A stretch of 64,000 bases of DNA, taken from positions 46,742 through 110,741 of the forward strand of contig CAZKTA010000004.1 in the NCBI GenBank assembly GCA_964555645.1, in the 5' to 3' direction. The notes below the pieces were generated by a model. That model was not told the DNA's origin and ran no database searches. It saw nothing but the letters and a program-made list of their open reading frames with translations. The DNA is from an uncultured Verrucomicrobiota bacterium. GTDB lineage: Bacteria > Verrucomicrobiota > Verrucomicrobiia > Limisphaerales > DTLC01. Below are positions 3,085-64,000 of this stretch, in pieces (the stretch's first letter is position 1; each line of letters starts with the position of its first letter). Made by a program: the position numbers and the translations under genes.

Positions 3085-4683
3085 ATGAACAAGACAGGCT
3101 TTCCCGGCAGTGTGCGAGCAGCACTCGTTTGCGTTGCAGCTACGGTTTCGGCCATTGGACTTGCACAGCAACAAGGCCATTTCAGCTACACTGTGGTTGA
3201 TGAACAAGCCATCATAACCGGATTCGATAAATCATACATAGGTGAAGTTAACATCCCCACAACACTTGGTGGTTACCCGGTGGTTGGTATTGGCGAGTCA
3301 GCTTTTGCATATTGCTCTGGGCTCAGTAAGGTCACAATCCCAAACGGTGTGATATGGATCGGCCCCGCTGGATTCTATTGCTGCAACACACTGACTAACG
3401 TTGTCCTGCCGGATAGCCTCACATCAATTGGGCAAGAAGCATTTGCGTATTGTGGTCTGCGGCATCTAACGATACCAAATGGCGTAACGAACATCGGGCC
3501 TCGTGCATTTTGGGCCTGCGGCAACCTTGTTGATGTTGCCTTTGGCAGTGGACTGAGCGCAATTGGTGACGCTGCGTTTGCCTTCTGCTCTGGTTTGCGG
3601 GAGGTTGTTATTCCTGACAACGTGATTGAGGTCGGTGCGTCGGCATTTTTGTGTTGCACCAGTTTAACCAATGCAACTGTAGGCAAAGGTGTTGCATCAC
3701 TCGGCAAAGGTGCTTTCTACGGTTGTTCGAGTTTGCTAGCAATTAACGTTGACCCGGCGAACTCCGCCTACAGCAGTCTCGACGGTGTCCTGTTCAACAA
3801 AGCAAAAACTTTGCTCATTCGATACCCAACCGCGCGCGCTGGGACTTATGCTGTTCCAGTAGGTGTGATTGAAATCGGGCCGGGTGCTTTTTTGAGCTGT
3901 GCAAACTTGACCGGTATCAGTTTCCCAAGTGGCCTATTGAACATTGGCGATAGCGCTTTCAGCGAATGCAACGCGCTGACTGATGTAACAATCCCACATA
4001 CCGTCACCGCATTAGGCGAATCGGCTTTTGAATATTGCTTTGGTCTGACTAATGTCACCATTGGAAACGGCCTTACCAATATCGGGCCGCGCGCGTTCAT
4101 TTCGTGCATTGAATTACGATCCGTCACGCTCGGCGCTAATGTGAGAACAATCGGTTGGTCAGCATTTAACGGTTGCACCAAACTCGGTCATATCGTGCTT
4201 GGCCACAGCCTCACAACTCTGGGGGATTACGCATTTTTATGGTGTACAAACCTAGTCCGGATTGTTTTGCCTAGAACACTGACCAGCGTCGGCACCAATG
4301 CATTCGCAGGATGCTCAAGCTTGGAACGTGTGTATTTCACTGGCAATGCCCCAACGCTTGTTGGCGACGATGTCTTCATGTTTTCGGACAATGTTACAGT
4401 GTATTACTTGCCCAACACGTTAGGTTGGGGGCCGACCTTTGCCGACCGGCCAGCACGATTGTGGAATCCAGTTTTTACCAGGATTAACCTCACCAATGGC
4501 CAGTTGCGTTTGACAGTGACAGGTACAGCAGGCATACCGATCGCACTTGAACTGGGCACGAATATCGTCGTGGGGCATTGGGAACACCGGCTCACCACAA
4601 ACCTTGTTGGCGGCCAGATTGACCTGGCCACGGCAGTTTTCCCAAATGCACAAGCTGGTTTTTGCCGGCTCGTCGGCCCATAA
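3085..4683 (+). CDS. Secreted BspA-type leucine-rich repeat (LRR_5) protein with a C-terminal beta domain
   Basis: Signal peptide (VRAALVCVAATVSAIGLA), about 14 repeats of consensus IPxxVTxIGxxAFxxCxxL, then VYFTGNAP...VYYLPNTLGW and a C-terminal domain ending GFCRLVGP. Start ATG 3085 preferred to 3037. Confidence 0.9.
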   Translation: MNKTGFPGSVRAALVCVAATVSAIGLAQQQGHFSYTVVDEQAIITGFDKSYIGEVNIPTTLGGYPVVGIGESAFAYCSGLSKVTIPNGVIWIGPAGFYCCNTLTNVVLPDSLTSIGQEAFAYCGLRHLTIPNGVTNIGPRAFWACGNLVDVAFGSGLSAIGDAAFAFCSGLREVVIPDNVIEVGASAFLCCTSLTNATVGKGVASLGKGAFYGCSSLLAINVDPANSAYSSLDGVLFNKAKTLLIRYPTARAGTYAVPVGVIEIGPGAFLSCANLTGISFPSGLLNIGDSAFSECNALTDVTIPHTVTALGESAFEYCFGLTNVTIGNGLTNIGPRAFISCIELRSVTLGANVRTIGWSAFNGCTKLGHIVLGHSLTTLGDYAFLWCTNLVRIVLPRTLTSVGTNAFAGCSSLERVYFTGNAPTLVGDDVFMFSDNVTVYYLPNTLGWGPTFADRPARLWNPVFTRINLTNGQLRLTVTGTAGIPIALELGTNIVVGHWEHRLTTNLVGGQIDLATAVFPNAQAGFCRLVGP

Positions 4684-33912: not shown

Positions 33913-36900
33913 ATGAGATTTCATTTAGTTGGCCGCGCAACTGCGCGATTGGGGGTAGGGAATTTGGTGCTCGCAGGGTTGATTCTCGGTGCTGGCTCAC
34001 TCAACGGTTCCTATCCGTTTTTTGACAACTTTGAGTCTGGTCTGGGCAACTGGAGCGCAGGTGGCACATGGGGCTTGACAACCGTGCGCTATGCATCGGC
34101 TACGCGCTCGGTTACGGATAGTCCGGGCGCCTTCTACACAAATAACACTGACGCGGCGTTGACCTTGGCTGGTTCGATCGGCTTGGTGGGCGCAACGCGG
34201 CCTGCGTTGAGTTTCTTCCACCAATACGCGTTGGAAACCGGCTACGATTTCGGGCGCGTTGAAGTCTCCACCAACGGCGGCGCAACCTGGCTGCCCACGC
34301 CGCTGGCTGCTTACACCGGCAACCTCGGCACGATGAGCCGCGAGCAACTGGACCTCTCGGCCTACACCGGGCAGGCGAACGTCCGCATCCGCTTCCGGCT
34401 CGTTACTGACAGCTCGGTGGTCATGGACGGCTGGTATGTGGACGACGTGCTTATTGCCCAAGCGCCCCCGCCGGTCACGCTCAGCGCCACGATGACCAAC
34501 CGCAATTCAGCGGCCCTCGCCTGGACCGCCTCTGCTGCACCGGATTTCGCCGCCTACCGACTTTACCGTGCGATGTCACCCGGCGTGGACTGGCGCACCG
34601 CCGGGGTTGTGGCCGAGGTTTCGCTCGCAAGCACGACCAACCTGACTGACATCACACTCAGCCCGAAAACGACCTACTACTATCGCTTGGCCGTGGTCAG
34701 CACCAATGGCCTGCTCACACTCGGCAACGAAATCGCCGTCACGACGCATCCGGGTATGGACTATCCGTTTGTGGACAACGGTGAGGGCGGGCCGAACACA
34801 TGGATCGCCGACGCGCCCTGGGCGTTGACCACCGAGCAGTCTGCCTCGCCCACGCGCGCCTGGAGCGATTCACCGGGCACGAACTACGCCAACGGCATTC
34901 CGTCGCAATCACTGACGCTGGCCGCGCCGTTGTTTCTTGCCGGCAACGCTGTGTCGCCGGTGCTCTCGTTCAACCATAAATACGACTTTGCCTCCGGCGA
35001 TTCGGCCAACGTGGAAATCTCGACCAACACCGGCGCAAGCTGGGTCACTCTCGCCAGCTTCACTGGCACGGCCACCAACACATGGCAGCGCGGGCGCATC
35101 AGTCTGGCCGCTTACACCAACGCCACGGTGCTCATCCGTTTCCGCATCACCACCGATCCCTCGGCCAACGCAGATGGCTGGTATCTGGACGACATTTCAG
35201 TGGCTGAGGCGCCCACGGTTGTCAACGCGCCCGTGCTCGATCAGGTCACCTCGCACTCGACCCGCGTCAGTTGGCCGGCCAACACCAACCAGTTCTTTTC
35301 CCATTACGCCATCTTCCGGTCCACCGCGCCGGGCGTCGGCATCAACTCGGCGCTTGTCGCCACCATCAGCAACCGCGCCACGACCAGCCTCGTGGACACC
35401 AACCTCGCGCTCGACACGGTCTATTACTACCGCGTTTATGCGGTGAACCCGTGGGGCACATTCTCCCCGGACAGCCCCACCGAGAGCAGCACGCGCACGC
35501 TCAATAACCCGCTGCCGTTTGGCGACGGCTTCGAAGACTCGTTGCAATCGTGGAATCTGACCGGCACGTGGGGACGCGCCACCAACCACGCCCGCAGCGG
35601 CGTCGCCTGCCTGAGCGATTCACCCGGATTCAATTACGGCAACAACTCCGATTCCTCCGCCCAAACCGCGGTGAACCTGGCGGGGAGCACCTGGCCGGTA
35701 TTGAAGTTCTGGGACAGGTTCCGGCTGGCGGACGGGGACTGGGCGCGGGTTGAGGTTTCGACCGATGGCAGTGGTTGGACGCCAGTGTATGGTGCTTGGG
35801 GAGTGCGGGAGAGCTGGCGCGAGCAGCAGATTGACCTCTCGCCGTGGAAGAACCAGAGCAACCTGCGCATCCGTTTCCGGCTGATCACCGACGGGAGCAC
35901 CACCGAGGACGGCTGGAGCATAGACGATGTGGTGGTGGCCGAGCAGGCGCCTGTGGCGGTGAGCCTGCCGTTTGTGGAGGGCTTTGAGTCGGGGCTGAGC
36001 AACTGGCTGGCGTCGAGCTGGGCTGTGGACACGAACAGTCCCTACGAAGGCAACTTAGCGGTGCGGGACGTGCCTGGGCGGATGAACCCGGACACAAGTT
36101 ATGCGCTGGTGTTGGGCGGGGAATTGAACCTGAACAACGCGGTGAATCCGCAGTTGGTGTTCTGGGTGCGTGGGCAGTTGTGGTATCGGTCGCGTTTCCG
36201 GGTGCAGTATTCGACCGATGGCGGGTTGAGCTGGCCGGAGTTGACGGGGCTGAACTATGACTGGAATGCGGGCTGGACGCGGATGCAGGTGAGCTTGCAA
36301 GGCCTGATCAACCAGACCGTGCGGCTGCGGTTTGTGACGTGGTGCGAGTGGGGCAGCGCACCGGCCCAAAGCCTCTGGCTAGACAAGGTCGTCATCGAGG
36401 AGATGCCGGCGGCGGTGACGCTGGCCGCGCCCGTGCCGGGGCTGCGCACGGTGAATCTGACCTGGACGCCATCGACGCTGGGCACGGCGTTCAAGCGTTA
36501 TGAGGTGCGGCGTTCGACTGGTCCGAATGTGACGTGGGACTCGACGTTGATCGGCAGCTTCACCAACGCGGCGGTGACGAATCTCACTGACACCGGCCTG
36601 AGCATCGGGGCAACTTACTATTACCGCGTCTTTACGGTGGACACCAACGATGTGTTCATTCCGTCCAACGAGCGTTCGACGACGACCGTGCCGGTGTTGT
36701 TGCCGCTGACGGATGCGTTTGACACGACGGCGCAGTGGGTGACGACGGGTAGTTGGGGTATTGCGCCCAGCGGGCGCACCGGCACCTGCCTGAGCGACTC
36801 GCCGACCGGGGATTACGCCAACAGCACCGACACGTATGCGATGACGGCGGTGAACCTGGCGGGGAGCACCTGGCCGGTATTGAAGTTCTGGGACAGGTTC

Positions 36901-39675
36901 CGGCTGGCGGACGGGGACTGGGCGCGGGTTGAGGTTTCGACCGATGGCAGTGGTTGGACGCCAGTGTATGGTGCTTGGGGAGTGCGGGAGAGCTGGCGCG
37001 AGCAGCAGATTGACCTCTCGCCGTGGAAGAACCAGAGCAACCTGCGCATCCGTTTCCGGCTGATCACCGACGGGAGCACCACCGAGGACGGCTGGAGCAT
37101 AGACGATGTGGTGGTGGCCGAGCAGGCGCCTGTGGCGGTGAGCCTGCCGTTTGTGGAGGGCTTTGAGTCGGGGCTGAGCAACTGGCTGGCGTCGAGCTGG
37201 GCTGTGGACACGAACAGTCCCTACGAAGGCAACTTAGCGGTGCGGGACGTGCCTGGGCGGATGAACCCGGACACAAGTTATGCGCTGGTGTTGGGCGGGG
37301 AATTGAACCTGAACAACGCGGTGAATCCGCAGTTGGTGTTCTGGGTGCGTGGGCAGTTGTGGTATCGGTCGCGTTTCCGGGTGCAGTATTCGACCGATGG
37401 CGGGTTGAGCTGGCCGGAGTTGACGGGGCTGAACTATGACTGGAATGCGGGCTGGACGCGGATGCAGGTGAGCTTGCAAGGCCTGATCAACCAGACCGTG
37501 CGGCTGCGGTTTGTGACGTGGTGCGAGTGGGGCAGCGCACCGGCCCAAAGCCTCTGGCTAGACAAGGTCGTCATCGAAAACTCGCCCCCGCCGGTCACCT
37601 TGGCCGCGCCCACCGATATCACGCCCAATTCGATGCGCCTGACCTGGACCGAAACGACGATCCCGAACTTCAAGGCGTATCGGGTCTATCGCTCGGAGTC
37701 GCCCGAACCGACCGAAAGCGCGACACTGGTCGCAGTCATCACCAACCGCGCCACCACTACATTCACCGACAGCGGGTTGATGGCGCGCCGGACCTATTAC
37801 TACCGCGTCTATCTCAACAACGAGAACGACACGAGCGTCGGCTCGAACCAGTCGTCCGCCATGACGACGGGTGTGGGACTGCCCTTCGCCGATGGCTTTG
37901 AAACCAACCAGTCCGGCTGGACGTTCACCGGCACGTGGTCGCGCGCGGCGGGCATCGGTCGCAACGGCTCGTGGGCTTTGCAGGATTCGGCGGGCGACTA
38001 TCCCAACAACGCCAGTCACTACGCGCAGTTCGCAGTGGATTTGCGCGGTCTCAACTGGCCGGTGCTGCGGTTCTGGGACCGGCACGCCTTCGCCGACAAC
38101 GACTGGGGTCGGCTCTTCGTCTCAGGCGATGGCGGCGCGAACTGGACCTGTGTGTATGGCGTCTCGGCCACGCGCACGGACTGGGCCGAACAGGCCATTG
38201 ACCTGTCGCCGTGGAAAAACTCCGGCCAGGTCTGGCTGCGTTTCCAGGTTAACAGCGACGGCGGCACGCAAAACGACGGATGGTATGTGGACGACGTGTC
38301 GCTGGCCGAGCACGTGCCTGCCGCCATGGTGTATCCGTTCCACGAGAACTTCGAGTCCGGCCTGGACAACTGGCTGCGCGCATCATGGACGTTGGACACC
38401 AACTTGCCCTATGCCGGGCAGGTTGCGGTGCGCGACACCGTGCCGCCGCGCATGCCGCCCGACGCGCAATTGGTGCTCGCGCTGGGCCGCCAGTTGAACC
38501 TGAGCAATGCCGTGAACCCGGCGCTGACCTTCTGGTTGCGCGGGCAGCTTTGGTATCGCAGCCGCTTCCGCGCGCAAGCCTCGACCGACGGCGGCCTCAA
38601 CTGGAGCGACCTGGTGGCTTTGAACAACGACTGGAACCAGAACTGGACGCGCATGCAGGTGCCGCTCACGACCTACACCAACCGCAGCATCCGCCTGCGC
38701 TTCATCGTGTGGAGCGAATGGGGCACCGCACCGGATCAGGATTTGTTCCTCGACAACATTGGCATCGGCGAACCCGCCCCCGGCGCGCCCACGCTGGCCG
38801 CGCCCGCAAACTTCACCATCGTCGGCGTTTCACGTCCGACACTGGTTGTGAGCAACGCCGTGGATTTCCAAGGCGACCCGCTGACGTATCGCTTCGAGGT
38901 CTATGCCGACCCGGCGCTCTCGCAGGTCGTCGCGCAAGTGCCGGCCATTGCGTCCGGCCCGCTCACAACCAGTTGGCAGGTGGACACCGACCTGCCCAAC
39001 AACACGCAATTTTGGTGGCGCAGCCGCGCCACCGACGGGACGAACACCGGCCCGTGGATGACCACGGCGACGTTCTACGTCAACGAAACCAACCGCCCGC
39101 CCGTCGCGCCGGTCATTGCTGGCCCGCCGCCGGGCTTGATGCTGACCAACCTCGACGTGCTGCTGCTCTGGTGGCCGTCGGCAGGTGATCCGGACGAAGG
39201 CGACCGCGTAGTGTCCTACAACATTCAGGTTGCGGACAATCCGGCGTTCGCGCTGCCGGTGATCAACGCCACGAATATTCCGGCCATCGAACTGCCGCCG
39301 GGCACAAACTGGGTGCTCAGCCTGCCGCTGAACAGCCTGCCCGGTGCGCAGAACTTCGTCTGGCGCACGCTCTATCACTGGCGTGTCAGCGCCCAAGACC
39401 AGCGCGGGCTTAGTTCGGCGTGGTCGGCGGCCTGGCCGTTGCAATACGGCCCGCCTGCGCCGCGCGCCGGCACCATCACTGCCATCCGACGTGAACCGGA
39501 TGGGAAGGTGACGTTGGAATGGACTGGCGCAGCCGGGTTCGTTTACGTCGAGTTCTCGCAGACATTGGACCCAGCGCAATGGTACACAGTGGCTGGGCCG
39601 TTGCATGGCACAAATTGGACATTTAGGCCCGTGCCAGGCATCCCAATTGGCTTTTACCGGCTCCGTGCTCAGTAA
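33913..39675 (+). CDS. Giant secreted modular protein: 8 jelly-roll (InhA/MAM/cleaved-adhesin-like) modules, about 6 FN3-like domains and a C-terminal domain
   Basis: Signal-peptide-like N-terminus; modules begin (Y/L)PF.(D/E).FE...W and end W..D(D/K)V; FN3 segments end TYYYR; terminus GFYRLRAQ. Confidence 0.85.
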   Translation: MRFHLVGRATARLGVGNLVLAGLILGAGSLNGSYPFFDNFESGLGNWSAGGTWGLTTVRYASATRSVTDSPGAFYTNNTDAALTLAGSIGLVGATRPALSFFHQYALETGYDFGRVEVSTNGGATWLPTPLAAYTGNLGTMSREQLDLSAYTGQANVRIRFRLVTDSSVVMDGWYVDDVLIAQAPPPVTLSATMTNRNSAALAWTASAAPDFAAYRLYRAMSPGVDWRTAGVVAEVSLASTTNLTDITLSPKTTYYYRLAVVSTNGLLTLGNEIAVTTHPGMDYPFVDNGEGGPNTWIADAPWALTTEQSASPTRAWSDSPGTNYANGIPSQSLTLAAPLFLAGNAVSPVLSFNHKYDFASGDSANVEISTNTGASWVTLASFTGTATNTWQRGRISLAAYTNATVLIRFRITTDPSANADGWYLDDISVAEAPTVVNAPVLDQVTSHSTRVSWPANTNQFFSHYAIFRSTAPGVGINSALVATISNRATTSLVDTNLALDTVYYYRVYAVNPWGTFSPDSPTESSTRTLNNPLPFGDGFEDSLQSWNLTGTWGRATNHARSGVACLSDSPGFNYGNNSDSSAQTAVNLAGSTWPVLKFWDRFRLADGDWARVEVSTDGSGWTPVYGAWGVRESWREQQIDLSPWKNQSNLRIRFRLITDGSTTEDGWSIDDVVVAEQAPVAVSLPFVEGFESGLSNWLASSWAVDTNSPYEGNLAVRDVPGRMNPDTSYALVLGGELNLNNAVNPQLVFWVRGQLWYRSRFRVQYSTDGGLSWPELTGLNYDWNAGWTRMQVSLQGLINQTVRLRFVTWCEWGSAPAQSLWLDKVVIEEMPAAVTLAAPVPGLRTVNLTWTPSTLGTAFKRYEVRRSTGPNVTWDSTLIGSFTNAAVTNLTDTGLSIGATYYYRVFTVDTNDVFIPSNERSTTTVPVLLPLTDAFDTTAQWVTTGSWGIAPSGRTGTCLSDSPTGDYANSTDTYAMTAVNLAGSTWPVLKFWDRFRLADGDWARVEVSTDGSGWTPVYGAWGVRESWREQQIDLSPWKNQSNLRIRFRLITDGSTTEDGWSIDDVVVAEQAPVAVSLPFVEGFESGLSNWLASSWAVDTNSPYEGNLAVRDVPGRMNPDTSYALVLGGELNLNNAVNPQLVFWVRGQLWYRSRFRVQYSTDGGLSWPELTGLNYDWNAGWTRMQVSLQGLINQTVRLRFVTWCEWGSAPAQSLWLDKVVIENSPPPVTLAAPTDITPNSMRLTWTETTIPNFKAYRVYRSESPEPTESATLVAVITNRATTTFTDSGLMARRTYYYRVYLNNENDTSVGSNQSSAMTTGVGLPFADGFETNQSGWTFTGTWSRAAGIGRNGSWALQDSAGDYPNNASHYAQFAVDLRGLNWPVLRFWDRHAFADNDWGRLFVSGDGGANWTCVYGVSATRTDWAEQAIDLSPWKNSGQVWLRFQVNSDGGTQNDGWYVDDVSLAEHVPAAMVYPFHENFESGLDNWLRASWTLDTNLPYAGQVAVRDTVPPRMPPDAQLVLALGRQLNLSNAVNPALTFWLRGQLWYRSRFRAQASTDGGLNWSDLVALNNDWNQNWTRMQVPLTTYTNRSIRLRFIVWSEWGTAPDQDLFLDNIGIGEPAPGAPTLAAPANFTIVGVSRPTLVVSNAVDFQGDPLTYRFEVYADPALSQVVAQVPAIASGPLTTSWQVDTDLPNNTQFWWRSRATDGTNTGPWMTTATFYVNETNRPPVAPVIAGPPPGLMLTNLDVLLLWWPSAGDPDEGDRVVSYNIQVADNPAFALPVINATNIPAIELPPGTNWVLSLPLNSLPGAQNFVWRTLYHWRVSAQDQRGLSSAWSAAWPLQYGPPAPRAGTITAIRREPDGKVTLEWTGAAGFVYVEFSQTLDPAQWYTVAGPLHGTNWTFRPVPGIPIGFYRLRAQ
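35668..37577 (+). repeat. Intragenic direct repeat, 2 x 731 bp (35668-36398 and 36847-37577)
   Basis: Offset 1179 bp. Alternate-frame ORFs in the two copies translate identically over the shared span, and the boundaries were read by eye. Confidence 0.92.
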
Positions 39676-42068: not shown

Positions 42069-44105
42069 TCACGGCGCAAGCTGCTTTACCGCTGTGTTCC
42101 CTGCGGTGTTTGTCATCACTAAGAAAACCGCGCCGTTTGCATTGACAAAAGCCCAATTCGTTTTCCCTCCCACACCCGTTGTGCTTACCGGTACCTCTGC
42201 CCACGGGATAGAGCTGAGCTGGGTTAGTGCAAGAAGGTTCGTCGCCACAATCGAGTTGGCGTGGATTCTCACAAATGAGTTCGAGCCGAATGTGTCACCC
42301 GAAGTAAAGGCCAGTCTGCGGCGTTCCAGATTTGTCGAGTTAAAGTATCCGTACAACCAGACACCATCAGTGTTGTTTGCGACTGCGTCTTGGGGGTTTA
42401 AGATTACGGCCAGCCGACCCCGAGAATGCATGTTTATGGCAGGGTGGTCGGCGGATGTGTAAGACTGGACCATGGCAGCCGCTCGATAGACCCATGTGTT
42501 GCCTGATTTTGATCGCCAGAAACCGTAATTGGCATTGCAGAACAGTTTTGCATTGGGACTTTCAGTTTCAAACCAGAGTGTGCCCGTGGACCCGTCGGGA
42601 GCCACATGTCCCCACCAATCATTTGGCGATGGCGCAAGAATCGTCACATTTAATTGTACTCCGGAACCCTTACCTAAAACCAGCGCATTTGTATTGCCGC
42701 CAACGGAGATTCTTCCGCCGAAAAAGTTAAGAGTCAAATTTGCGTCCGACACAATCATGTTTGTAGAAGCAAGGTGGCGTTCTATGTTGTTGTTGACAAA
42801 AGTAATTGTCCCGCCGCCACCGCCGAGAATTACAGGCCCGGTGTCCCCAATTTCGCAGTTTTCCACGATCAGACTTTTCAGTCCCGGGCCGTTTACTCTA
42901 ATACCCGGTATGTAACGCGGTTGGTTTTGCGCATTTCGGTTGTAGCCGATATTGCAATTTACGATGGACAACGAGTCTATCAGCCCCTCCAAAAGAATAT
43001 TTGCGTGCCCTTGATTGTAAATGTAGCAGTTTTCCAGTCGAATTGAACTTGGGCCGGATTGGTAAAAACCAAAACCAAAACCGCGAATACCGACGTTATG
43101 CGCAAAGAACTGCTCGCCATTTGCGGTGTAGTTGGCGTTGCTAATTGAAAGGCCGACGTTGACTACAGCACCGGTGGGTCCACTTAGCGAAACATCACGA
43201 ATCCACTGATTGTGAATGTAAGGAAAGCAAAGCCCGTTATACGATGGGTTGGTTTGAATTATCCGGCTTGCCCGCGGATTTTGTTCGTTATGGTTGTCTG
43301 ATCCGTCGCCGAATACATTCACAGCCCACGGGACTATTATGTTGGTGGAGATGTAGTACGTGCCTCCGGGAATATAGACTGTTGTTCCGTAGCCGCTTTG
43401 TTTTGCGGCGTTCAACGCTGCTTGTATAGCGGCTGAATCATCATTGGCATCACTGCCGTTGGCTCCAAACCAGCGCACGTCAATCCACCAGAACTGGTTG
43501 GTGCGCGCCACATTATGCGCCAAGCGTGCATCTGGTACAGTGCCAGAGACGAGTTGACTGGCATTGAGTGCGGTCAACCCAGCGCCATTGCCACTGAAGT
43601 GGTTAGCTGAGTTGACGAACGCGACTGCGCCGGTGTAAGTGCCGGCTAGGTTGGCAGATGGGATTATGCCTGTTAGTTGATTGGCAGGCAACAGACCGCT
43701 GAGTCTGCCCGCTGTAATTGCGTACGGGATGGGTGTAAGTTGCTGACGCGGTGAAAGCACAGTAAACTCAGCATCGCCGGTTGCGCGCACAGCAATTTCC
43801 AACCATCGGATGTCACCTGAGAAAACGCTTGGACCGAAATCTAACACGGCGGTGAGCAATCCATTTGTGACCCACAGCGTATTGTTTGTGATTGGGCCGG
43901 CAACGAGGACACCGCCGGTCGCAGCGTCGTAAATCGTAAATCGAAAATCGTAAAGTCCTTCTACAGGGACGCCGTTGGTGCTCAATCGGCCTTGGTAAGT
44001 GATAGCTGTGCCTTGAGCCAGCAGCCTGTGGCACTGCGCATTGAAGTGAAAACAAACTGCTAATGCAATGAGTAACCGTCGTGTTTTCGATTTGACTGAA
44101 GTCAT
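42069..44105 (-). CDS. Secreted fibre/tailspike-like protein with a pectate-lyase-3-type beta-helix
   Basis: Signal peptide; N-domain GTAITYQGRL...YDFRFTIYD...RWLEIAVR...PRQQLTPIPYA; short fibre repeats (ASQLVSGTVPDARL); beta-helix cap IDVRWFGANG...DDSAAIQAALNAA...VYIPGGTY. Confidence 0.75.
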   Translation of the reverse strand: MTSVKSKTRRLLIALAVCFHFNAQCHRLLAQGTAITYQGRLSTNGVPVEGLYDFRFTIYDAATGGVLVAGPITNNTLWVTNGLLTAVLDFGPSVFSGDIRWLEIAVRATGDAEFTVLSPRQQLTPIPYAITAGRLSGLLPANQLTGIIPSANLAGTYTGAVAFVNSANHFSGNGAGLTALNASQLVSGTVPDARLAHNVARTNQFWWIDVRWFGANGSDANDDSAAIQAALNAAKQSGYGTTVYIPGGTYYISTNIIVPWAVNVFGDGSDNHNEQNPRASRIIQTNPSYNGLCFPYIHNQWIRDVSLSGPTGAVVNVGLSISNANYTANGEQFFAHNVGIRGFGFGFYQSGPSSIRLENCYIYNQGHANILLEGLIDSLSIVNCNIGYNRNAQNQPRYIPGIRVNGPGLKSLIVENCEIGDTGPVILGGGGGTITFVNNNIERHLASTNMIVSDANLTLNFFGGRISVGGNTNALVLGKGSGVQLNVTILAPSPNDWWGHVAPDGSTGTLWFETESPNAKLFCNANYGFWRSKSGNTWVYRAAAMVQSYTSADHPAINMHSRGRLAVILNPQDAVANNTDGVWLYGYFNSTNLERRRLAFTSGDTFGSNSFVRIHANSIVATNLLALTQLSSIPWAEVPVSTTGVGGKTNWAFVNANGAVFLVMTNTAGNTAVKQLAP

Positions 44106-56076: not shown

Positions 56077-56840
56077 AACGTTTGTTGTCGGCAATTTTGT
56101 TTTTTGGCCTGATCGTTGCCGCGTGGGAATGGCTGGTACGTGCGGGGGTGTGGCCTCCGACCATCGTACCTGCGCCCTCAGAGGTTGCGCGTTACCTGAC
56201 AAGTTCGATTGCCGACGGTACATTACTCGGGGCAACCTGGGTGACAATCAGACGACTGGTGCTTGGCTATGCATTCGGGTTTGCCCTTGGGCATCCGATG
56301 GGTGTGTTGATTGCTCGATTCAAGTTCTTCAAAAACACAATTGGCTTGCTTGCACTTGGTTTGCAATCGTTACCGAGCATTTGCTGGGCGCCGCTTGCGC
56401 TGTTGTGGTTTGGTCAGACCGAGGCCGCGATGTTTTTCATCGTTATCATGGGTTCGGTTTGGTCAATCATGTTGGCCACAGACGCAGGCGTCAGGCATGT
56501 ACCACCTATATACCGTTGGGCAGCCATGACAATGGGATCGCACGGAGTTCATCTCTGGGCGAAGGTAATACTACCGGCTGCGCTCCCGTTCATCGTCAGC
56601 GGTATGAAACAGGGCTGGGCGTTTGCTTGGCGGTCGCTCATGGCGGCGGAGATTTATGTCACGATCCTGACCGGGTTTGGCCTTGGCCACGTGCTACATT
56701 ATGGGCGCGAATTACACGCCATGGATGCCGTGCTTGGCATCATGTTGGTGATAATTTTGATCGGGTTGACAACGGACAAGCTGCTCTTTTCGCCGCTCGA
56801 GCGGTTCATCCACAGACGTTGGGGAACAGAGCGTGCATGA
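56073..56840 (+). CDS. ABC transporter permease (SsuC/TauC-like)
   Basis: LQSLPSICWAP, ILPAALP...GMKQGWAFAWRSLMAAE and GLG. Confidence 0.93.
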   Translation: MKRLLSAILFFGLIVAAWEWLVRAGVWPPTIVPAPSEVARYLTSSIADGTLLGATWVTIRRLVLGYAFGFALGHPMGVLIARFKFFKNTIGLLALGLQSLPSICWAPLALLWFGQTEAAMFFIVIMGSVWSIMLATDAGVRHVPPIYRWAAMTMGSHGVHLWAKVILPAALPFIVSGMKQGWAFAWRSLMAAEIYVTILTGFGLGHVLHYGRELHAMDAVLGIMLVIILIGLTTDKLLFSPLERFIHRRWGTERA

Positions 56841-57006
56841 GCGCAGAATTGTTGTCTGGCAGGCTGACGCATTGGGTACTTAACGTTCAGAGCGGACTTG
56901 ATTCGCGTAAGGGTCCGTATTGTCTTGTTCGACCTCGCTTGGCCTCGGCCGGCTGCAACATGTTTCAATATGCATGGTCTAGGCAAATGCGACGCGGTTT
57001 TGCGGG

Positions 57007-57034
57007 TTGACATTGGTTGGTTTGGGGATAGGAT
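57007..57034 (+). promoter_or_regulatory. Putative sigma70 promoter for tRNA-Glu and the RelE-like gene
   Basis: TTGACA (57007-57012), 16 bp, TAGGAT (57029-57034). Confidence 0.5.
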
Positions 57035-57056
57035 TTGCTGGAAGTTAAAACCGAGC

Positions 57057-57131
57057 GGCGCGTTCGTCTATCGGTTAGGACACGGCCCTCTCAAGGCTGA
57101 AAGATGGGTTCGATTCCCATACGCGCCGCCA
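57057..57131 (+). tRNA. tRNA-Glu (anticodon CTC)
   Basis: Acceptor ggcgcgt/acgcgcc plus GCCA, anticodon arm cggcc-ctCTCaa-ggctg, T-loop gttcgattc. Confidence 0.95.
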
Positions 57132-57141
57132 AAGCTTTTGT

Positions 57142-57510
57142 ATGAGACCGTTTCAGATCATATTCAACCCGACAAGTGCAGCCGAGCTAGCTCGCATGCC
57201 GAAAGAATTACAGTTGCAGATTCTGGGCGAGTTTCGCGGTTTACCGCAGCAGGCGATCGGGACTGAGCTTGAGCAATTTGGCAAGCTGGAGCGTGGCGGT
57301 CGGACGCTTTACCGGTTTAGGGTTGGTGATTACCGGATTTATTTCGAGCGGCACGAGCTTGGGCTGGTTGTGCATCGGATTTTGAACAAGCACACACTTA
57401 AAGATTTTCTGTATCGGTCGGGTCTCAAGAGCAGCGAAGACGAGATGCTTCAGGCGAACCCGAAGTTTTGGGATCTGATCGAGTCGGCAAAAACGGAGCG
57501 CAAAACCTAG
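57142..57510 (+). CDS. RelE/ParE-fold protein with a C-terminal extension
   Basis: FQIIFNPTSAAELARMP...LYRFRVGDYRIYF...VVHRIL fits the RelE superfamily pattern. Confidence 0.75.
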   Translation: MRPFQIIFNPTSAAELARMPKELQLQILGEFRGLPQQAIGTELEQFGKLERGGRTLYRFRVGDYRIYFERHELGLVVHRILNKHTLKDFLYRSGLKSSEDEMLQANPKFWDLIESAKTERKT

Positions 57511-57805
57511 CTAAAACGAGCGGGTTTGTGCCGAGCAGGTAGTAATGCTGCTATTGGGAGTCCGTTTTGGTTTGACAGAACTGTTTTTTCCCAAACGCAA
57601 CGGGGGGATTTAAGCATGAATGATTTCTCGCTGGCGGATTTCCGGTGCTGCTGCAATTCTTGAACGGCGTGTGTGCCGTAGTGTGCTGAGTATTGGAGCC
57701 GAGCGCAATTTGCTGATGCAGGAGCTGCGAGCGTGTGCGGCTGCGCGCGTAAACCGTACATTGTAGCGGGGTTAATTTGCGGATTTTTGGTGGGTACGTT
57801 TTGCG

Positions 57806-60187
57806 GTGAAAGCAAAGAAGGACACTTTTGACCACGTTTGGTTTGTATATGCGGGGTTGGCGCTGGCCACGTTGCTCAGCTATGCGCAAGTGATCAATTT
57901 CGGGTTCACCAACTACGACGACCCGTACATTGTGTGGCAAAATCCAGTTGTATCCAGCGGATTAACATTGCGCGGGACATATTGGGCATTGACAACCGGT
58001 TTTTTTGATTTCTGGCGTCCGATGACGTGGTTGTCGCACATGCTTGATTGTGAGCTGTTTGGGCTGCGTGGTGGCATGCATCGGCTAATGAACGTGTTGT
58101 ATCACACGGCAGGCACGTTGTTTCTTTTTCACGCGCTTAAGATAATGACACGCTCAGTATGGCGCAGTGCGGTTGTAGCTGGGTTATTTGCGCTGCACCC
58201 GTTGCGTGTCGAGTCGGTCGCATGGGTAGCCGAGCGCAAAGACGTGTTGAGCGGGCTATTCGCATTTTTGAGCATGGTATGTTACGCGCGCTATGCCGAG
58301 TTACAACGAACTGTTTCTTGCACGAGTGCGCAGCAGCACGGGTCGGTTGTGCAGAAAGTGCCGTGCAAAACGCGCAGTATGCGTTGGTACTGGGGATCAA
58401 TTGTGTTTTTCGGACTGGGTTTGATGAGCAAACCGGCGTTGGTAACCCTCCCTTTTGTGCTATTGCTATTTGACTGTTGGCCGTTGAAACGGCTGCCTTT
58501 GCCGACGCCGCAATCGGCAGTGGCGCCGGTCACAAAAGCGATGTGGTGTGGTTGGACGGAACTTGCGCGTGAAAAATGGCCATTTTTCATGTTGAGCATT
58601 GTATCCAGCGGGATCACGTACGCTGTGATGAAAGCCGGCGGGAACGTCCTGTCGGGTGAAGTTGTTCCTTGGGGGTTACGTTTGGCGAATGTGCCAATCT
58701 CGTACGTGCGCTATTTGATCAAGACAATTGTGCCGATCAACCTTGCGCCGTTTTATCCGATGCCCGACTCATGGCCAGTTTGGTATGTAGCAGGGGCAAC
58801 ATTGATTCTTTGTGCAGTAACGATAATTGCAATTCGGCTCGTACGGTCTGCGCCGTACATCATAGTTGGCTGGCTGATATTTTTGGGGATGCTTGTGCCG
58901 ACGATCGGGATAGTACAGATGGGGTATCACTCAATTGCGGACAGGTACACTTATTTGCCGTTGGTAGGTTTATTTGTAGCAGCGGTATGGGGCGGCGCGG
59001 ATTTGGCAACCAAATTACGTCTGCCCGTGTTTTTGACGTTTACAATAGGTGCCGCTGTACTTGGTGCTGCGGGGCTGTTGACCTGGCGTCAAGTCCGGCA
59101 TTGGCGGGATGACGTGTCGCTTTGGTCATGGTGCATTGCTGTTACGAAAAACAATCCAAACGCACATTACGGTCTGGGTCGTGCATACCACGAGTTAGGT
59201 CAGCTCGACAAGGCAATCGAACAATATCAGGCTGCATTGCAGCTTGAGCCAGGTCATCTTCTGGCCAACTTGAATCTTGGTGTGGTACTTGCCAGGCAAG
59301 GCAGGTTAACGGATGCAACCAACTACTTCGGTGCGGTATTGGCGCGTGAACCTAAGATGGTGGAAGCGCACTTGAACATGGGCAACGCACTGTTTCTGCT
59401 CAAAGACTACGCGGGCGCAACTAATCACTTCGCGCACGTGCTTGCGCTGGTTCCGCAGCATCCCGAGGCGCATCGTACGTACGCGGCAGCGTTGGTCGAG
59501 TTGGGTGATTTCAACAGTGCGCTTGGGCACGTTAATGAGGCAATCCGGCTGGTCCCAAAGGACGTTTGGCTGCATGTGTTCAAGGGGCGGGCATTGAGTG
59601 GTCTGGGCAGGTCAGACGAAGCTTTGGATGCCTATTTCACGGCACTGAACATCAACTATGAATGTGCAGAGGCGCATTTCTACCTGGCGCTTCAATGGCT
59701 CAAGCGCGGCCGGTTGCAGGATGCAATTGCAAGTTTCAAAGAGGCTGTGCGAATCAACCCGAGTTGGGCTGAAGCACATGTGCAGCTTGGTATCGTTTTG
59801 ACCACACAAGGCATGCTTGCTGAGGCAATCGCACATTACCGACAGGCATTGAGTCTCAGACCATACGATCCAATAGCGCTTAACAACCTTGCCTGGCTGC
59901 TGGCCACCACCGCCAGCCCACAGCTCAGAGATGGGAAAGAAGCGGTGCAGTTGGCCGAACGCGCCTGTGCGCTGACTGGCTACAGAGAAACAGTTTTTGT
60001 GGGCACACTTGCCGCTGCGTATGCTGAAGCTGGCCAGTTCGATAAGGCAGTGGAGACCGCACGGCGTGCCTGCGAACTTGCCGTTGCGCAGGGGCAAACG
60101 AACCTTTTGTTGCGCAACCAACAACTGCTTGAGCTTTTCAAGGCTGGGCAAGCCTATCATGGGGGTGCACCGAGGCAAACTGAATGA
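57806..60187 (+). CDS. TMTC-like GT-C membrane glycosyltransferase with a TPR array
   Basis: FTNYDD, FWRPMTWLSH, HPLRVESVAWVAERKDVL, SKPALVTLP and ADRYTYLP, followed by about 9-10 TPRs ending LNNLAWLL...GTLAAAYAEAG. Confidence 0.85.
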   Translation: MKAKKDTFDHVWFVYAGLALATLLSYAQVINFGFTNYDDPYIVWQNPVVSSGLTLRGTYWALTTGFFDFWRPMTWLSHMLDCELFGLRGGMHRLMNVLYHTAGTLFLFHALKIMTRSVWRSAVVAGLFALHPLRVESVAWVAERKDVLSGLFAFLSMVCYARYAELQRTVSCTSAQQHGSVVQKVPCKTRSMRWYWGSIVFFGLGLMSKPALVTLPFVLLLFDCWPLKRLPLPTPQSAVAPVTKAMWCGWTELAREKWPFFMLSIVSSGITYAVMKAGGNVLSGEVVPWGLRLANVPISYVRYLIKTIVPINLAPFYPMPDSWPVWYVAGATLILCAVTIIAIRLVRSAPYIIVGWLIFLGMLVPTIGIVQMGYHSIADRYTYLPLVGLFVAAVWGGADLATKLRLPVFLTFTIGAAVLGAAGLLTWRQVRHWRDDVSLWSWCIAVTKNNPNAHYGLGRAYHELGQLDKAIEQYQAALQLEPGHLLANLNLGVVLARQGRLTDATNYFGAVLAREPKMVEAHLNMGNALFLLKDYAGATNHFAHVLALVPQHPEAHRTYAAALVELGDFNSALGHVNEAIRLVPKDVWLHVFKGRALSGLGRSDEALDAYFTALNINYECAEAHFYLALQWLKRGRLQDAIASFKEAVRINPSWAEAHVQLGIVLTTQGMLAEAIAHYRQALSLRPYDPIALNNLAWLLATTASPQLRDGKEAVQLAERACALTGYRETVFVGTLAAAYAEAGQFDKAVETARRACELAVAQGQTNLLLRNQQLLELFKAGQAYHGGAPRQTE

Positions 60188-60240
60188 TCCCCTGATTTTG
60201 TGCTGTCTTTGCCGAGCGCGAGGATGAGGCCGGAGCAAAA

Positions 60241-60861
60241 TTACCGGACGTCTTCGCCCAGCTCGACGTTCCAGTAAGCGAGGTCAATGAAATGTTTCCA
60301 GCTATCGTGCTGGTACAAGTTGAGATTGATCTGTACGAACGGGCGCCACTTGGGCCGTTTGGGCTTTCGGATGAGCCGCATCCCAGCTTCCTGTGGGGTA
60401 CGGTTGCCCTTGCGCGCATTGCACTCGAGGCATGAACAAACCACGTTTTCCCACGTGGTTGGTCCGCCGCGGTCACGTGGTATAACGTGATCTAGATTAA
60501 GGTCCTGCCGTTGGAACACGCGTCCGCAGTATTGGCAAGTGTTCTTGTCCCGTTCGAAAATGTTATGCCGAGTGAACTTGACTTCTTTCTTTGGCAGCCT
60601 GTCGTAAACAAGCAGCAGAATGATGCGCGGCACGCGAATCCGAAAAGACACAGTGCGCACGCATTCCGGACTAGGATCGCGCTCGGAGAAATCGCGCCAT
60701 TCTTTGAAGTCGTATGTACGGAACGAGCCGTCCGGGCCGTTGACAACAACCTGCGCGTGGCCCTGGAACAGCAGGATCAACGCCCGTTTCACCGTGCAGA
60801 TGTTAACCGCTTGCCATAGGCGGTTTAACACAAGCACCTGCTGGTTCAACAACGCTACCAT
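60241..60861 (-). CDS. HNH endonuclease (McrA/HNH_5-like)
   Basis: VLVLNRLWQAVN, CQYCG and LNLDHVIPRDRGG..TWENVVCSC..CNARKGNR. Confidence 0.93.
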   Translation of the reverse strand: MVALLNQQVLVLNRLWQAVNICTVKRALILLFQGHAQVVVNGPDGSFRTYDFKEWRDFSERDPSPECVRTVSFRIRVPRIILLLVYDRLPKKEVKFTRHNIFERDKNTCQYCGRVFQRQDLNLDHVIPRDRGGPTTWENVVCSCLECNARKGNRTPQEAGMRLIRKPKRPKWRPFVQINLNLYQHDSWKHFIDLAYWNVELGEDVR

Positions 60862-60882
60862 ACCAACAGTAAAGCTCGGCTG

Positions 60883-60912
60883 AAGTTAGCATTTTGCGCA
60901 TTAAGATGTCAA
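60883..60912 (-). promoter_or_regulatory. Putative sigma70 promoter of the HNH gene
   Basis: Minus strand: TTGACA (60912-60907), 18 bp, extended TGcTAACTT (-10 at 60888-60883). Confidence 0.45.
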
Positions 60913-61027
60913 CGACGCCGAAAAAGTCACTAGCTTGCATGTACGCAGGAATGCAGGGGTGCAGCGGTTTGTCGGGGTTAGAAGAGATTTTTGTGGGTGG
61001 GACAACAGTGGTGTACGGCTGGCTTGT

Positions 61028-63394
61028 TTATCGCATAGCTGTGCCGTAGCTTAGGCTTTGGTCGTGGAAAGGTTTACCTGCCTGGTACAGTTGCAGCAGT
61101 TCGGTATTACGCCTGGCGATGTTTGTTAGGCCGCGCGCCTCGGCAAGTGCAACAGCTTGTTCCGCAGTGCGGATTGCGTCATCGAACCTGCCGAGCTCGG
61201 CATAGGCTGCTGCGAGCGTGCTAAGATAGACCGGCACCGAGGATTGCGTGAGTGCACAAGCGCGTTCGGCAAGAGCAACTGCCTCAGGGCCGTTTCGTAC
61301 CCGTTCGTCGGGGTGTGTGGCAAGGATCAAAGCCAGGTTGTTGTACGCTTGTGGCCAGTCCGGCTTCAGCTCAAGGGCAATGCGGTAATACGAGATGGCA
61401 ATTTCAGCTTTCCCCGTTTGCACAAGCAGTTGCGCAAGGTCGAACGCAGTGTTTGGGTTGGGCTCGAGCTTGACCAACTCGGCCAAGTTTGTAATAGCAC
61501 CGTTGATGTTTTGTTGCTTTAGCATCACATCCGCAAGTAGCCTTCGGGCTTTGGCATCTTGCGGTCTGAGTCGGAGGCACTTTAGGAGTGCAGTGCCGGC
61601 CAAGTCGAGCTTGCCCAAAGCGGCTGAGGCAGCGCCCAGGTTAAACTGTGCATCTGGATGGTCTGGCCGTAGTTTGGCTGCGGCAATAAAGTGCGGAAGC
61701 GCATCTTGGACCCTGTGGAGGTGTGTCAATGCAGTACCCAGGTTCATGCGCGCATTGAAGGAATCCGGCTGTAACTGTACAGCCAATCGTAAGTAGTCGG
61801 CTGCTTCGGCGTAGTTGCCAGTGTCAAGCAGCGCAGTAGCTAGCGTGTGGTACGCAATGGCAGTTGGCCATTCCGCAACCAGTTGACGGAGCTTTGCCGT
61901 GCCTTCCTCGATTTCGCCGGTCTGCACCTGGATTGCCCCCAGGTTCATCCGCGCCCACTGGTGGCGCGGATTAATGCGCAAAGCTGACTCGAAATGTCGC
62001 CGTGCGTTTTTGAGGTCACCCTCGACCATCAGTGCGGCACCGAGATTGTTGTGCGCGACCTCGTTTTGTTGCGTGACGCGAAGAGCTTGCTCGAACAAAA
62101 GTTTGCTGTTTTCCCAATGCCGCAACTGGTGGCGCGTTACCACAGCAGCGGCAATGACCAGCGCCGTGGCTCCAAGGCTCAGCGCTAGCCGCAGCCTAGG
62201 CAAGTGCCTTGCAATCTGTTGTCCACCCCACGCCGCCATAATAAAGATGCCAATGAGCGGGATGTAGGTGTACCTGTCGGCAATGGATTGCCGGCCCACC
62301 TGGATTAGGCCGATCACGGGCACAAGTGTGCCTAGAAACCAGAACCACCCCATCAGCAGGTATGGTTGACGGTGTGCTCGTGTCACAACAGCAATTGTGA
62401 TCGCGAGCAACGCTAATCCAGCCACATAAGGTGTTGCTGAATCAAAACCGATTATCTTGTAAGGGTAGAATACGGCCAGATTATCCGGCCAAAGCGTTTT
62501 GCCGATATACCGCATGTATGCAACAGGTACGTGCGCCAAACGGTTTGTAAACTGCAGCAGACGCGGCGACGCAATCGCATCTGTTTGGCTTTGGGTAAGC
62601 AGTGTGACCACGCTTATGACTGCCGACAAAACAAAGAACGGCACCTTTTCGAGTAATAATTTTTTGAAATGGCCGTAAGCGGTGTCGCCACGTGCATTTT
62701 CGGTAGGGGTAGTTTCCTCGCCGTTGGAACAGACTGTATAGGTATGTCGCTTGAATTTGATCCTTTGTAACGGCCAGAAATCAAGCAGCAACATAACAAA
62801 CGGCCATGTCACAAGCATTGCTTTGCTCATTAGGCCAAGGCTAAAAAACGCTATTGTTAGGAGGTAAAACTTCCGGCGGATTGAATGCTGGGCAGGGGCC
62901 GCCTTTGCGTAGCGGACATATGTAATTAGGGCAAGCAAACCAAAAAATGTGCTTAGCACATCCTTGCGTTCAGCTACCCATGCGACCGACTCGACATGTA
63001 GCGGATGCAGGGCAAACAGCGCAGAGACAAACCCGCTACGCCAAACCGTGCCTGTGGTCGTATGCAGCAGGATGAACAGCAACAGTGTGTTTGCAACGTG
63101 CAAGAGCAGATTCGTGAGGTGAAACCCGCCCGCCCAGTCGCCATAAAGCTCGCTGTCGAGCATCAGTGACAACCACGTAACGGGATGCCAGTTACCGCTA
63201 CGACCTGTTTTGAATGCCCAGGTTACACTTTCCAGGCTCAAGCCCGACAGCACGTGCGGGTTCTCGGTTACGTACACTGGGTCGTCGTAGTTAATGAACT
63301 GGTGCCGTGTGACCGGCAAATAAATCGCTGTGGTCACAACGCACAGTAACAAGCCTACGAACCACACCTGCGTGGTAACCGATCGATCCGTCAT
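61028..63394 (-). CDS. TMTC-like GT-C membrane glycosyltransferase with a TPR array (paralogue 2)
   Basis: FINYDD, NWHPVTWLS, HPLHVESVAWVAERKDVL, SKAMLVTWP and ADRYTYIP, followed by TPRs. Start ATG 63394 preferred. Confidence 0.85.
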   Translation of the reverse strand: MTDRSVTTQVWFVGLLLCVVTTAIYLPVTRHQFINYDDPVYVTENPHVLSGLSLESVTWAFKTGRSGNWHPVTWLSLMLDSELYGDWAGGFHLTNLLLHVANTLLLFILLHTTTGTVWRSGFVSALFALHPLHVESVAWVAERKDVLSTFFGLLALITYVRYAKAAPAQHSIRRKFYLLTIAFFSLGLMSKAMLVTWPFVMLLLDFWPLQRIKFKRHTYTVCSNGEETTPTENARGDTAYGHFKKLLLEKVPFFVLSAVISVVTLLTQSQTDAIASPRLLQFTNRLAHVPVAYMRYIGKTLWPDNLAVFYPYKIIGFDSATPYVAGLALLAITIAVVTRAHRQPYLLMGWFWFLGTLVPVIGLIQVGRQSIADRYTYIPLIGIFIMAAWGGQQIARHLPRLRLALSLGATALVIAAAVVTRHQLRHWENSKLLFEQALRVTQQNEVAHNNLGAALMVEGDLKNARRHFESALRINPRHQWARMNLGAIQVQTGEIEEGTAKLRQLVAEWPTAIAYHTLATALLDTGNYAEAADYLRLAVQLQPDSFNARMNLGTALTHLHRVQDALPHFIAAAKLRPDHPDAQFNLGAASAALGKLDLAGTALLKCLRLRPQDAKARRLLADVMLKQQNINGAITNLAELVKLEPNPNTAFDLAQLLVQTGKAEIAISYYRIALELKPDWPQAYNNLALILATHPDERVRNGPEAVALAERACALTQSSVPVYLSTLAAAYAELGRFDDAIRTAEQAVALAEARGLTNIARRNTELLQLYQAGKPFHDQSLSYGTAMR

Positions 63395-63578
63395 GCCACC
63401 GGCTGTAAAACAGTTTTTGTTTTCGATTGGCAGAAACTGTATCAAGCCCACGCTTCAACAGCACGTAATTTTGGTGTTTCTCATAAAGCCAATCGTTGCT
63501 CAGGAAAATCGTCAAAAAACGAAGATGCTCCGCGGCAGGAAGCGTGTTTCCGCCTGCAACAGCCGGCATCGGCAGAGT

Positions 63579-64000
63579 TTACGGAGCGCTTGTGACAGTG
63601 CCGGTGTCTAATGCGGGATCGCGGTACGGTTTACCTGCGCGGTAAAGTTGGAGCAGTTCTTGGTTTCGTAAGACCAGGTTTGTCTGGCCGGCTGTTTCTG
63701 CCAGTGTACGCGCTAGTTCGGCTGTACGAGTTGCGTCATCGAACCTACCGGCCTCGGCGTATGCGGCTGCGAGTGTGCCAACAAACAAAGCTTGTTTGTA
63801 CTGGGTAAGTTTGCAGGCTTTTTCGGCCAGTTGGACGGCTTCGTTGCCATTGCGGAGCGCATCGTTTGGGGCGGCTGCCAGCAGCCATGCAAGGTTGTTT
63901 AGCACATCAGGTGAATCAGGTTTGATCTGGAGCGCTTCTCGATACAGTGCAGTTGCCTCGGCGAGGTTACCTTCGCTGGTGAGGATAACTGCAAGTTTGG
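63579..64000 (-). CDS. C-terminus of a TPR protein, probably a third TMTC-like paralogue (truncated by window)
   Basis: Open to the window edge: KLAVILTSEGNLAEATALYREALQIKPDSPDVLNNLAWLLAAAP...GTLAAAYAEAGRFDDA...LYRAGKPY, closely matching the C-termini of the other two. Confidence 0.75.
   Translation of the reverse strand, partial: KLAVILTSEGNLAEATALYREALQIKPDSPDVLNNLAWLLAAAPNDALRNGNEAVQLAEKACKLTQYKQALFVGTLAAAYAEAGRFDDATRTAELARTLAETAGQTNLVLRNQELLQLYRAGKPYRDPALDTGTVTSAP

Follow-up and report, generated by a model that had tools for sequence, protein, structure and literature searches.

TMTC-like GT-C/TPR paralogues in an uncultured Verrucomicrobiota bacterium: candidate periplasmic glycosyltransferases

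Three TMTC-like genes

The last 6.2 kb of a 64,000-nucleotide stretch of DNA from an uncultured Verrucomicrobiota bacterium (hereafter the window; C4:46742-110741, i.e. contig 4, CAZKTA010000004.1, of a 3.33-Mb genome that is 96% complete) contain three related genes, which almost certainly encode GT-C glycosyltransferases homologous to the animal TMTC enzymes and which combine a membrane domain with tetratricopeptide repeats (TPRs). On balance, we infer that their products are inner-membrane enzymes of the TMTC branch of the GT-C_A fold that would glycosylate acceptors held by the TPRs; the activity, topology, sugar and acceptor are predictions and are weighed separately below. Positions are those of the window unless a contig is named (C3, C5 etc.), and the features are collected in Table 1.

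The initial annotation had described two complete genes and a third C-terminus, with the NYDD, W(R/H)P and HP.xVESVAWVAERKDVLS motifs, and all of these were recovered at the places given there. Genes 1 and 2 share 41% identity from end to end (E 7e-170), a likeness far beyond chance. The longest open reading frame (ORF) of gene 2 probably overstates its product, since the orthologues measure 789-796 aa (that of the relative L010 has 796 aa and 68% identity); translation probably begins with the ATG at 63394 (MTDRS...), which gives a protein of about 788 aa. The fragment of gene 3 at the window edge is 59% identical to the C-terminus of gene 1 and 56% to that of gene 2, and the intact gene, which extends beyond the window (C4:110320-112317), encodes 665 aa with the same motifs. 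Seven TMTC-like copies are present genome-wide: genes 1-3 and four others on contigs 3, 5 and 7.

Kinship with animal TMTC enzymes and the GT-C fold

A profile of 16 bacterial N-terminal membrane domains (N-domains) was aligned with a profile of 12 N-terminal domains of animal TMTCs (N-TMTCs), taken from the supplementary alignment of Eisenhaber et al. 2021 (PMC7801869). The hhalign match was 99.7%, with an E-value of 4.4e-26 over 386 of 434 columns in the local mode, and reached E 1.3e-35 in the global mode. The two most divergent paralogues, on contig 3, matched TMTC at 99.4% and 98.2%, whereas the controls, nine GT-C ORFs of the PMT_2 type found elsewhere in the genome, stayed below 2% against both profiles. 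Thus, the genes encode GT-Cs specifically of the TMTC type and not generic PMT/ArnT-like enzymes.

The AlphaFold2 model of the full-length gene 1 product had a pLDDT of 92.2 and a pTM of 0.85. A Foldseek search with this model was swamped by TPR proteins (OGT, SPINDLY, APC), and the N-domain was therefore refolded alone (pLDDT 82.7, pTM 0.88). All of the top 22 Foldseek matches of the resulting model in the PDB were GT-C enzymes (probability 0.95-1.00, TM-score 0.35-0.47), including archaeal AglB (3wak, E 2.4e-4), PglB, yeast STT3, ArnT (5f15, E 2.2e-3, and 5ezm), Pmt4, Pmt1/2, AftD, DPY19 and AftA, which bears out the GT-C identity first proposed; no TMTC structure was found among the PDB entries searched with Foldseek. 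The model predicts the helical core with a long first extracytoplasmic loop that is characteristic of GT-C_A enzymes, and the acidic pair D38-D39 lies in this loop.

The same fold, with an acidic pair in loop 1, is found in the PMT (GT39; Pmt1/2, Pmt4 and actinobacterial Pmt) and ArnT (GT83) families, whose lipid-phosphate-monosaccharide donor may, by analogy, be shared by the bacterial copies. The MIR domain of PMT and the ArnT-type periplasmic domain are, however, absent from the latter, which carry TPRs instead. Against PMT_2 (PF13231, cut-off 26.1 bits), gene 1 scored 16.6 bits (E 0.014) and the paralogue C3:174835-176991 scored 18.3 bits (E 0.004), both below the cut-off, which six other genes of the genome pass. 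Pfam, run on the membrane domains of genes 1 and 2 alone (N-terminal 430-436 residues), returned nothing at E<=10. The best Foldseek matches were the oligosaccharyltransferases AglB, PglB and STT3 (GT66; 3wak, 6gxc, 5ogl and 8age), which are protein-modifying GT-Cs but differ from the bacterial copies in having a WWDYG-type periplasmic domain, in sequence (9-13% identity) and in using a lipid-pyrophosphate-oligosaccharide donor.

Motifs of the membrane domain

The membrane domain of each of the three proteins carries the motifs NYDD, W(R/H)P, HPLxVESVAWVAERKDVLS, SKP..VT and ADRYTY. The corresponding residues of gene 1 are F34-T-N-Y-D38-D39, W70-R71-P72, H131-P-L-R-V-E-S-V-A-W-V-A-E-R-K-D146-V-L-S, K209 and D379-R-Y-T-Y383, while gene 2 has FINYDD, NWHP and HPLHVESVAWVAERKDVLS.

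Seven motifs (M1-M7) have been described for animal TMTCs, and two of their residues, the Glu in KE and the Asp in DW, were modelled as metal ligands (PMC7801869). Three of them are kept in the bacterial copies: M1, where D52/D53 of TMTC1 align with D38-D39 in hhalign; M3, where TMTC HPIHTEAVAGIVGRAD corresponds to H131..E136..R144-K-D146; and M7, where AERxxY corresponds to D379-R380..Y383. The other four are kept in part. W70-(R/H)71-P72 is aligned to the YRP of M2 (SHKSYRP), the SHKS part being absent. K219 and T224 of M4 are represented by K209 and T214, but the modelled metal ligand Glu220 is replaced by Pro (P210). The aromatic residue of M5 (DW) is kept as Y317, next to a variable residue in place of the Asp, and of M6 (PxxP) only the second Pro, P365, is found, in the ninth transmembrane helix.

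Among 68 homologues, H131, P132, V135-V138, W140 and E143-D146 of loop EL2 and R380, Y381 and Y383 of loop EL5 are invariant, and in the alignments of both 16 and 68 sequences K209 of loop EL3 is invariant and P210 nearly so. By analogy with the role assigned to the pair in TMTC (PMC7801869), D38-D39 are presumed to form the catalytic and acceptor-binding site, and the Arg of EL5, R380, is a putative phosphate-binding residue, like its equivalent in M7 of TMTC. Altogether, the 68 homologues have 43 invariant positions in common in the membrane domain, which is a strong argument for the predicted enzymes being active.

The family defined by the N-domain profile is very large: a search of 1.84 billion representatives yielded 29,939 clusters (50% identity) at E<=1e-30 and 105,402 at E<=1e-3. 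The homologues among the matches listed come mostly from Verrucomicrobiota metagenome bins, and their names there are 'tetratricopeptide repeat protein', 'PilF' or 'TadD', with the JGI name 'protein O-mannosyl-transferase' for some close homologues of gene 1. The prevalence of these names in public annotation, together with the loss of two putative metal ligands of TMTC, might be taken to mean that the proteins are catalytically dead, serving as membrane-anchored TPR scaffolds or chaperones. This is very improbable, as the invariant positions include the DD pair, HP..VESV.W..ERKD, K209 and R380, which correspond to donor- and acceptor-binding positions of solved GT-Cs, and a domain that did no more than anchor the protein would hardly be so conserved over some 30,000 clusters. 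In one homologue (P0009, NCBI, 1065 aa), a single chain contains two complete TMTC-like membrane domains, one after the other.

Topology, TPR array and C-terminal cap

The helix pattern of the model is consistent with the 11-helix transmembrane scheme of TMTC, and the density of Lys and Arg is 0.15-0.43 in the predicted cytoplasmic loops vs 0.05-0.06 in the long periplasmic ones. Because of the helix count, the placing of the motif loops and this positive-inside pattern, the N-terminus is predicted to be cytoplasmic and the motif loops and TPRs to be periplasmic. Animal TMTC1-4 (CAZy GT105), which are O-mannosyltransferases of the endoplasmic reticulum acting on cadherins and protocadherins, consist of an 11-helix GT-C domain and non-cytoplasmic TPRs, an arrangement that is also predicted for the bacterial proteins, which differ in having no cadherin substrates.

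The C-terminal halves were recognised by Pfam as TPR arrays, as the initial annotation had it (TPR_2, E 1.7e-43 for gene 1 and 1.2e-33 for gene 2). Each protein has about 8 TPRs (about 20 helices in the full-length model) followed by a conserved cap, and the best structural matches of the TPRs in Foldseek were the substrate-binding TPRs of OGT and SPINDLY. The cap, of four helices, occupies the last ~95 residues and has the family-wide consensus NNLAWLLAT..RNG.EAV.LAE.AC.LT...GTLAAAYAEAG.F..A, although the contig-5 paralogue is without it. It is a bacterial feature in comparison with animal TMTC and is better kept than the TPR body: genes 1-3 and one of the contig-3 copies are 55-63% identical here, and gene 1 and the C3b paralogue share 58% in the cap vs 26% in the membrane domain. 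The cap might dock on the enzyme itself or on a shared partner.

Table 1. Positions of the TMTC-like genes, their functional parts and other features of the window
Feature	Position	Strand	Basis or remark
Gene 1, TMTC-like GT-C/TPR protein, 793 aa	57806-60187	+	ORF, AlphaFold2 model, GT-C fold, hhalign, TPR Pfam matches
Gene 1, membrane domain (aa 1-440)	57806-59125	+	TPRs and C-terminal cap follow as aa 441-793
Gene 1, D38-D39, DD motif of first periplasmic loop	57917-57922	+	(nearly) invariant in alignments of 16 and 68 sequences
Gene 1, H131-D146, HPLRVESVAWVAERKD, loop EL2	58196-58243	+	aligned to TMTC HPIHTEAVAGIVGRAD, holding the RxD motif M3
Gene 1, K209-T214 (KPALVT), loop EL3	58430-58447	+	equivalent of TMTC KE(T/Q)xxT (M4), Pro for Glu
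Gene 1, D379-Y383 (DRYTY), loop EL5	58940-58954	+	equivalent of TMTC ERxxY (M7), aligned with AERVLY
Gene 1, C-terminal cap	59876-60160		
Gene 2, TMTC-like GT-C/TPR paralogue	61028-63451	-	longest ORF, 807 aa
Gene 3, 3' end (139 codons and stop)	63579-64000 (coding 63579-63998)	-	C-terminus alike genes 1 and 2
HNH endonuclease-domain gene, 206 aa	60241-60861	-	between genes 1 and 2; PF14279, E 4e-16
ParE-like ORF, 122 aa	57142-57510	+	directly upstream of gene 1
MAM/Reelin/FN3 giant protein gene	33913-39675	+	proposed acceptor
BspA-type leucine-rich repeat protein gene	3037-4683		proposed acceptor
Pectate-lyase-like protein gene	42069-44105		proposed acceptor

Paralogues and their conservation

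The membrane domains of the five close paralogues share 42-52% identity, and 26-33% with the two contig-3 copies, while the TPR bodies of the paralogues share 26-40%. In the genomes of related Verrucomicrobiae, the orthologues of genes 1-3 are found in the same position with 68-78% identity, against ~40-46% to the other copies, and the orthologous TPR bodies are as well conserved (65-78%) as the catalytic domains. This is consistent with the divergent, substrate-selecting TPRs that had been proposed at the outset. Since position-matched one-to-one orthologues with conserved TPR bodies exist, the triplication is old and each copy is under selection; the sequences fit anciently diverged paralogues with distinct functions and paralogue-specific TPR partners.

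The genes belong to a block common to the relatives, which comprises an NMT1-type binding protein, an ABC ATPase, a permease, a 122-aa ParE-like protein, gene 1 (+), the HNH gene (-), gene 2 (-), gene 3 (-) and a MiaB-like radical-SAM protein; the genes upstream of it differ between relatives. The HNH gene occupies the same place there and is 96% identical, vs 68-78% for the flanking GT-C genes. The idea that it marks a mobile element or a rearrangement of recent date was rejected, its position and sequence being conserved and PADLOC giving generic HNH-domain matches only. The gene thus behaves like a strongly constrained resident rather than like a mobile homing endonuclease or a scar left by rearrangement; its conserved place beside the GT-C genes does not imply a functional tie to them. 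The ParE-like ORF has a weak match to the ParE toxin (PF05016, E 0.0015, below the cut-off), is ~93-95% identical in the relatives and always lies between the ABC transporter and gene 1; an antitoxin partner was not identified. A scan of 56800-64000 for promoters and terminators gave counts at or below the shuffled expectation and is uninformative on operon structure.

Donor route

The donor is very probably a lipid-phosphate-sugar, the carrier of which would be a bacterial polyprenol where TMTC uses dolichol. A search for a polyprenol-phosphate-mannose synthase, suggested in the initial annotation, revealed a candidate on contig 19, unlinked to the cluster: a GT2 enzyme (C19:52160-52960) that resembles the Pyrococcus dolichol-phosphate-mannose synthase 5mlz (E 2.3e-37). 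This is one of five Dpm1/ArnC/AglJ-like GT2 enzymes of the genome, the other four being ArnC/AglJ/PpgS-like, and a ManC-like guanylyltransferase is encoded at C1:288857-289942. None of the seven paralogues is adjoined by a GT2 or lipid-sugar synthase gene. Taken together, the gene content makes a polyprenyl-phosphate-mannose route plausible but genomically unlinked.

The only GT2/GT-C pair of the genome lies on contig 8 (C8:46679-49662, outside the window) and consists of a PMT_2-type GT-C (652 aa) followed by an ArnC/AglJ-like GT2 (260 aa). It has the classic arrangement of a lipid-sugar synthase with a GT-C enzyme and is unrelated to the TMTC-like family.

Proposed function and the acceptor question

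The proposed reaction would begin with the binding of a polyprenyl-phosphate-sugar on the periplasmic face of the membrane. In the simplest case this would be undecaprenyl- or polyprenyl-phosphate-mannose, made from GDP-mannose by the synthase-like GT2 of contig 19; mannose is the leading choice of sugar by analogy with TMTC, although a tentative one. K209 of EL3 and R380 of EL5 may hold the donor phosphate, and the DD pair of loop 1 together with the HPxxVESVAW..ERKD loop may form the catalytic and acceptor site, where a single sugar would be moved to a hydroxyl group of the acceptor held by the TPRs. This acceptor is most likely a periplasmic or secreted protein, a choice that analogy with TMTC favours somewhat over other acceptors, and each paralogue might serve an acceptor set of its own.

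Several observations weigh against this reading. A HMMER profile of the 16 N-domains found no PDB sequence at E<=10, and sequence-only links to the solved GT-Cs therefore fail; the Foldseek E-values are modest and the TM-scores do not exceed 0.47. Of the TMTC/DUF1736 comparison put forward in the initial annotation, the TMTC homology of the N-domain was confirmed by hhalign, but the Pfam signature TMTC_DUF1736 (PF08409) had no match at E<=10, either in the membrane domains or in the genome as a whole; the DUF1736 loop, which in animal TMTC carries DNPA and lies between transmembrane helices 7 and 8, is not recognisable in the bacterial copies. Neither of the modelled TMTC metal ligands (Glu in KE, Asp in DW) is present, and the catalytic details may therefore differ from those of TMTC. 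The conserved block encodes no donor synthase and no obvious acceptor, and no reported activity or acceptor of a bacterial family member was found in the literature searched. Gene 2 also has a sub-threshold match to Wzy_C_2 (E 4.4e-4). TPR domains occur in fusion with polysaccharide machinery as well, and ArnT glycosylates a lipid.

Some of these points bear directly on a serious rival, in which the proteins are active GT-Cs with a non-protein acceptor (lipid A or the lipopolysaccharide core, peptidoglycan or exopolysaccharide) and the TPRs form a periplasmic scaffold toward machinery for export or assembly, of the kind known from BcsC, PgaA, PelB and AlgK. ArnT is not only among the fold matches but is also the closest solved template for TMTCs (PMC7801869), the polysaccharide GT-Cs AftD and AftA are among the Foldseek matches, and the TPRs gave NCBIfam matches to BcsC, PgaA and the PEP-CTERM protein PrsT, all below the cut-off; the Wzy_C_2 match of gene 2 and the absence of a linked acceptor protein gene from the conserved block would also fit. 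However, the sequence kinship is specific to TMTC and does not include the ArnT/PMT_2-type GT-Cs that the genome also encodes. Enzymes that glycosylate proteins (AglB, PglB, STT3, PMT, DPY19) make up most of the best fold matches, and seven long-kept paralogues with paralogue-specific, conserved TPRs are easier to reconcile with many macromolecular clients than with a single lipid or glycan. A non-protein acceptor thus appears possible but the less probable of the two.

If proteins are modified, the question arises whether the clients are encoded nearby. According to the initial annotation, the genes would glycosylate the secreted proteins of the window, namely those with FN3/MAM, leucine-rich repeat and beta-helix 'fibre' domains (Table 1). 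These candidates have signal-peptide-like N-termini, beta-sandwich or beta-helix domains and a Ser and Thr content of 15-18%, vs 9-12% in cytoplasmic proteins. This enrichment is mild, mucin-like Ser/Thr tracts are absent (at most 35% in any 40 aa), and none of the candidates lies inside the block conserved in the relatives. The nearest of them (the pectate-lyase-like protein) is 13.7 kb from gene 1, with chorismate synthase, TspO, a sugar-activation operon, a symporter and an ABC transporter encoded between. Proximity within 64 kb is also uninformative, because such secreted proteins abound in the genomes of the phylum. The choice of these particular substrates was therefore not upheld and seems improbable, even though the contig-5 paralogue is followed by two secreted proteins on the same strand. 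The latter, at C5:170260-177982 outside the window, are an FGE-sulfatase/BNR protein (802 aa) and a pectate-lyase-like protein with immunoglobulin domains (820 aa); they are possible clients of the contig-5 paralogue, as a lead only.

The largest of the candidates in the window, a secreted protein of 1920 aa with MAM, Reelin-subrepeat and FN3 domains, is encoded by DNA with 63% G+C, vs 51-57% elsewhere in the window. It is compositionally distinct and may represent either a repeat-rich gene or foreign DNA.

Place in the family and significance

Full-length TMTC homologues are present in many prokaryotes, e.g. AMJ42_05695 of a deltaproteobacterium (Eisenhaber et al. 2021, PMC7801869). These homologues from poorly characterised prokaryotes are of the same kind, a GT-C domain with TPRs, and only their existence is mentioned there; no paper characterising a bacterial TMTC-like enzyme was found in the literature searched. 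The genes described here are ordinary members of this very large, known family, whose biochemical role is predicted from sequence. Beyond that earlier report, the present analysis documents how large the family is, how many copies occur in genomes of the phylum, where the motifs differ and that a block with the three genes is conserved. Among 151 genomes sampled from Verrucomicrobiota, 57 (belonging to 38 of the 79 genera) have between 1 and 14 copies, which often lie in tandem.

The locus adds little to the many others like it; its contribution lies in a rigorous demonstration of kinship, in the record of the TMTC motifs that were kept or lost, and in old paralogues that are conserved individually; three such copies are an argument for separate functions. 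A further step, which at present is rather doubtful, would be that the paralogues O-glycosylate, probably mannosylate, different sets of folded periplasmic, outer-membrane or secreted proteins, selected in each case by the paralogue's own conserved TPR body, and do so without the two metal ligands modelled for animal TMTCs.

Animal TMTCs are important both in disease and for the function of cadherins. From a bacterial member that is easy to work with, the first biochemistry and structure of an enzyme of the TMTC type could be obtained, and the bacterial members might reveal a common route of protein O-glycosylation in diderm bacteria. If the paralogues do have client sets of their own, this would mean a widespread and so far unrecognised O-glycosylation of the TMTC type in diderms, and the three genes would offer a simple model for the choice of substrates by TMTC enzymes.

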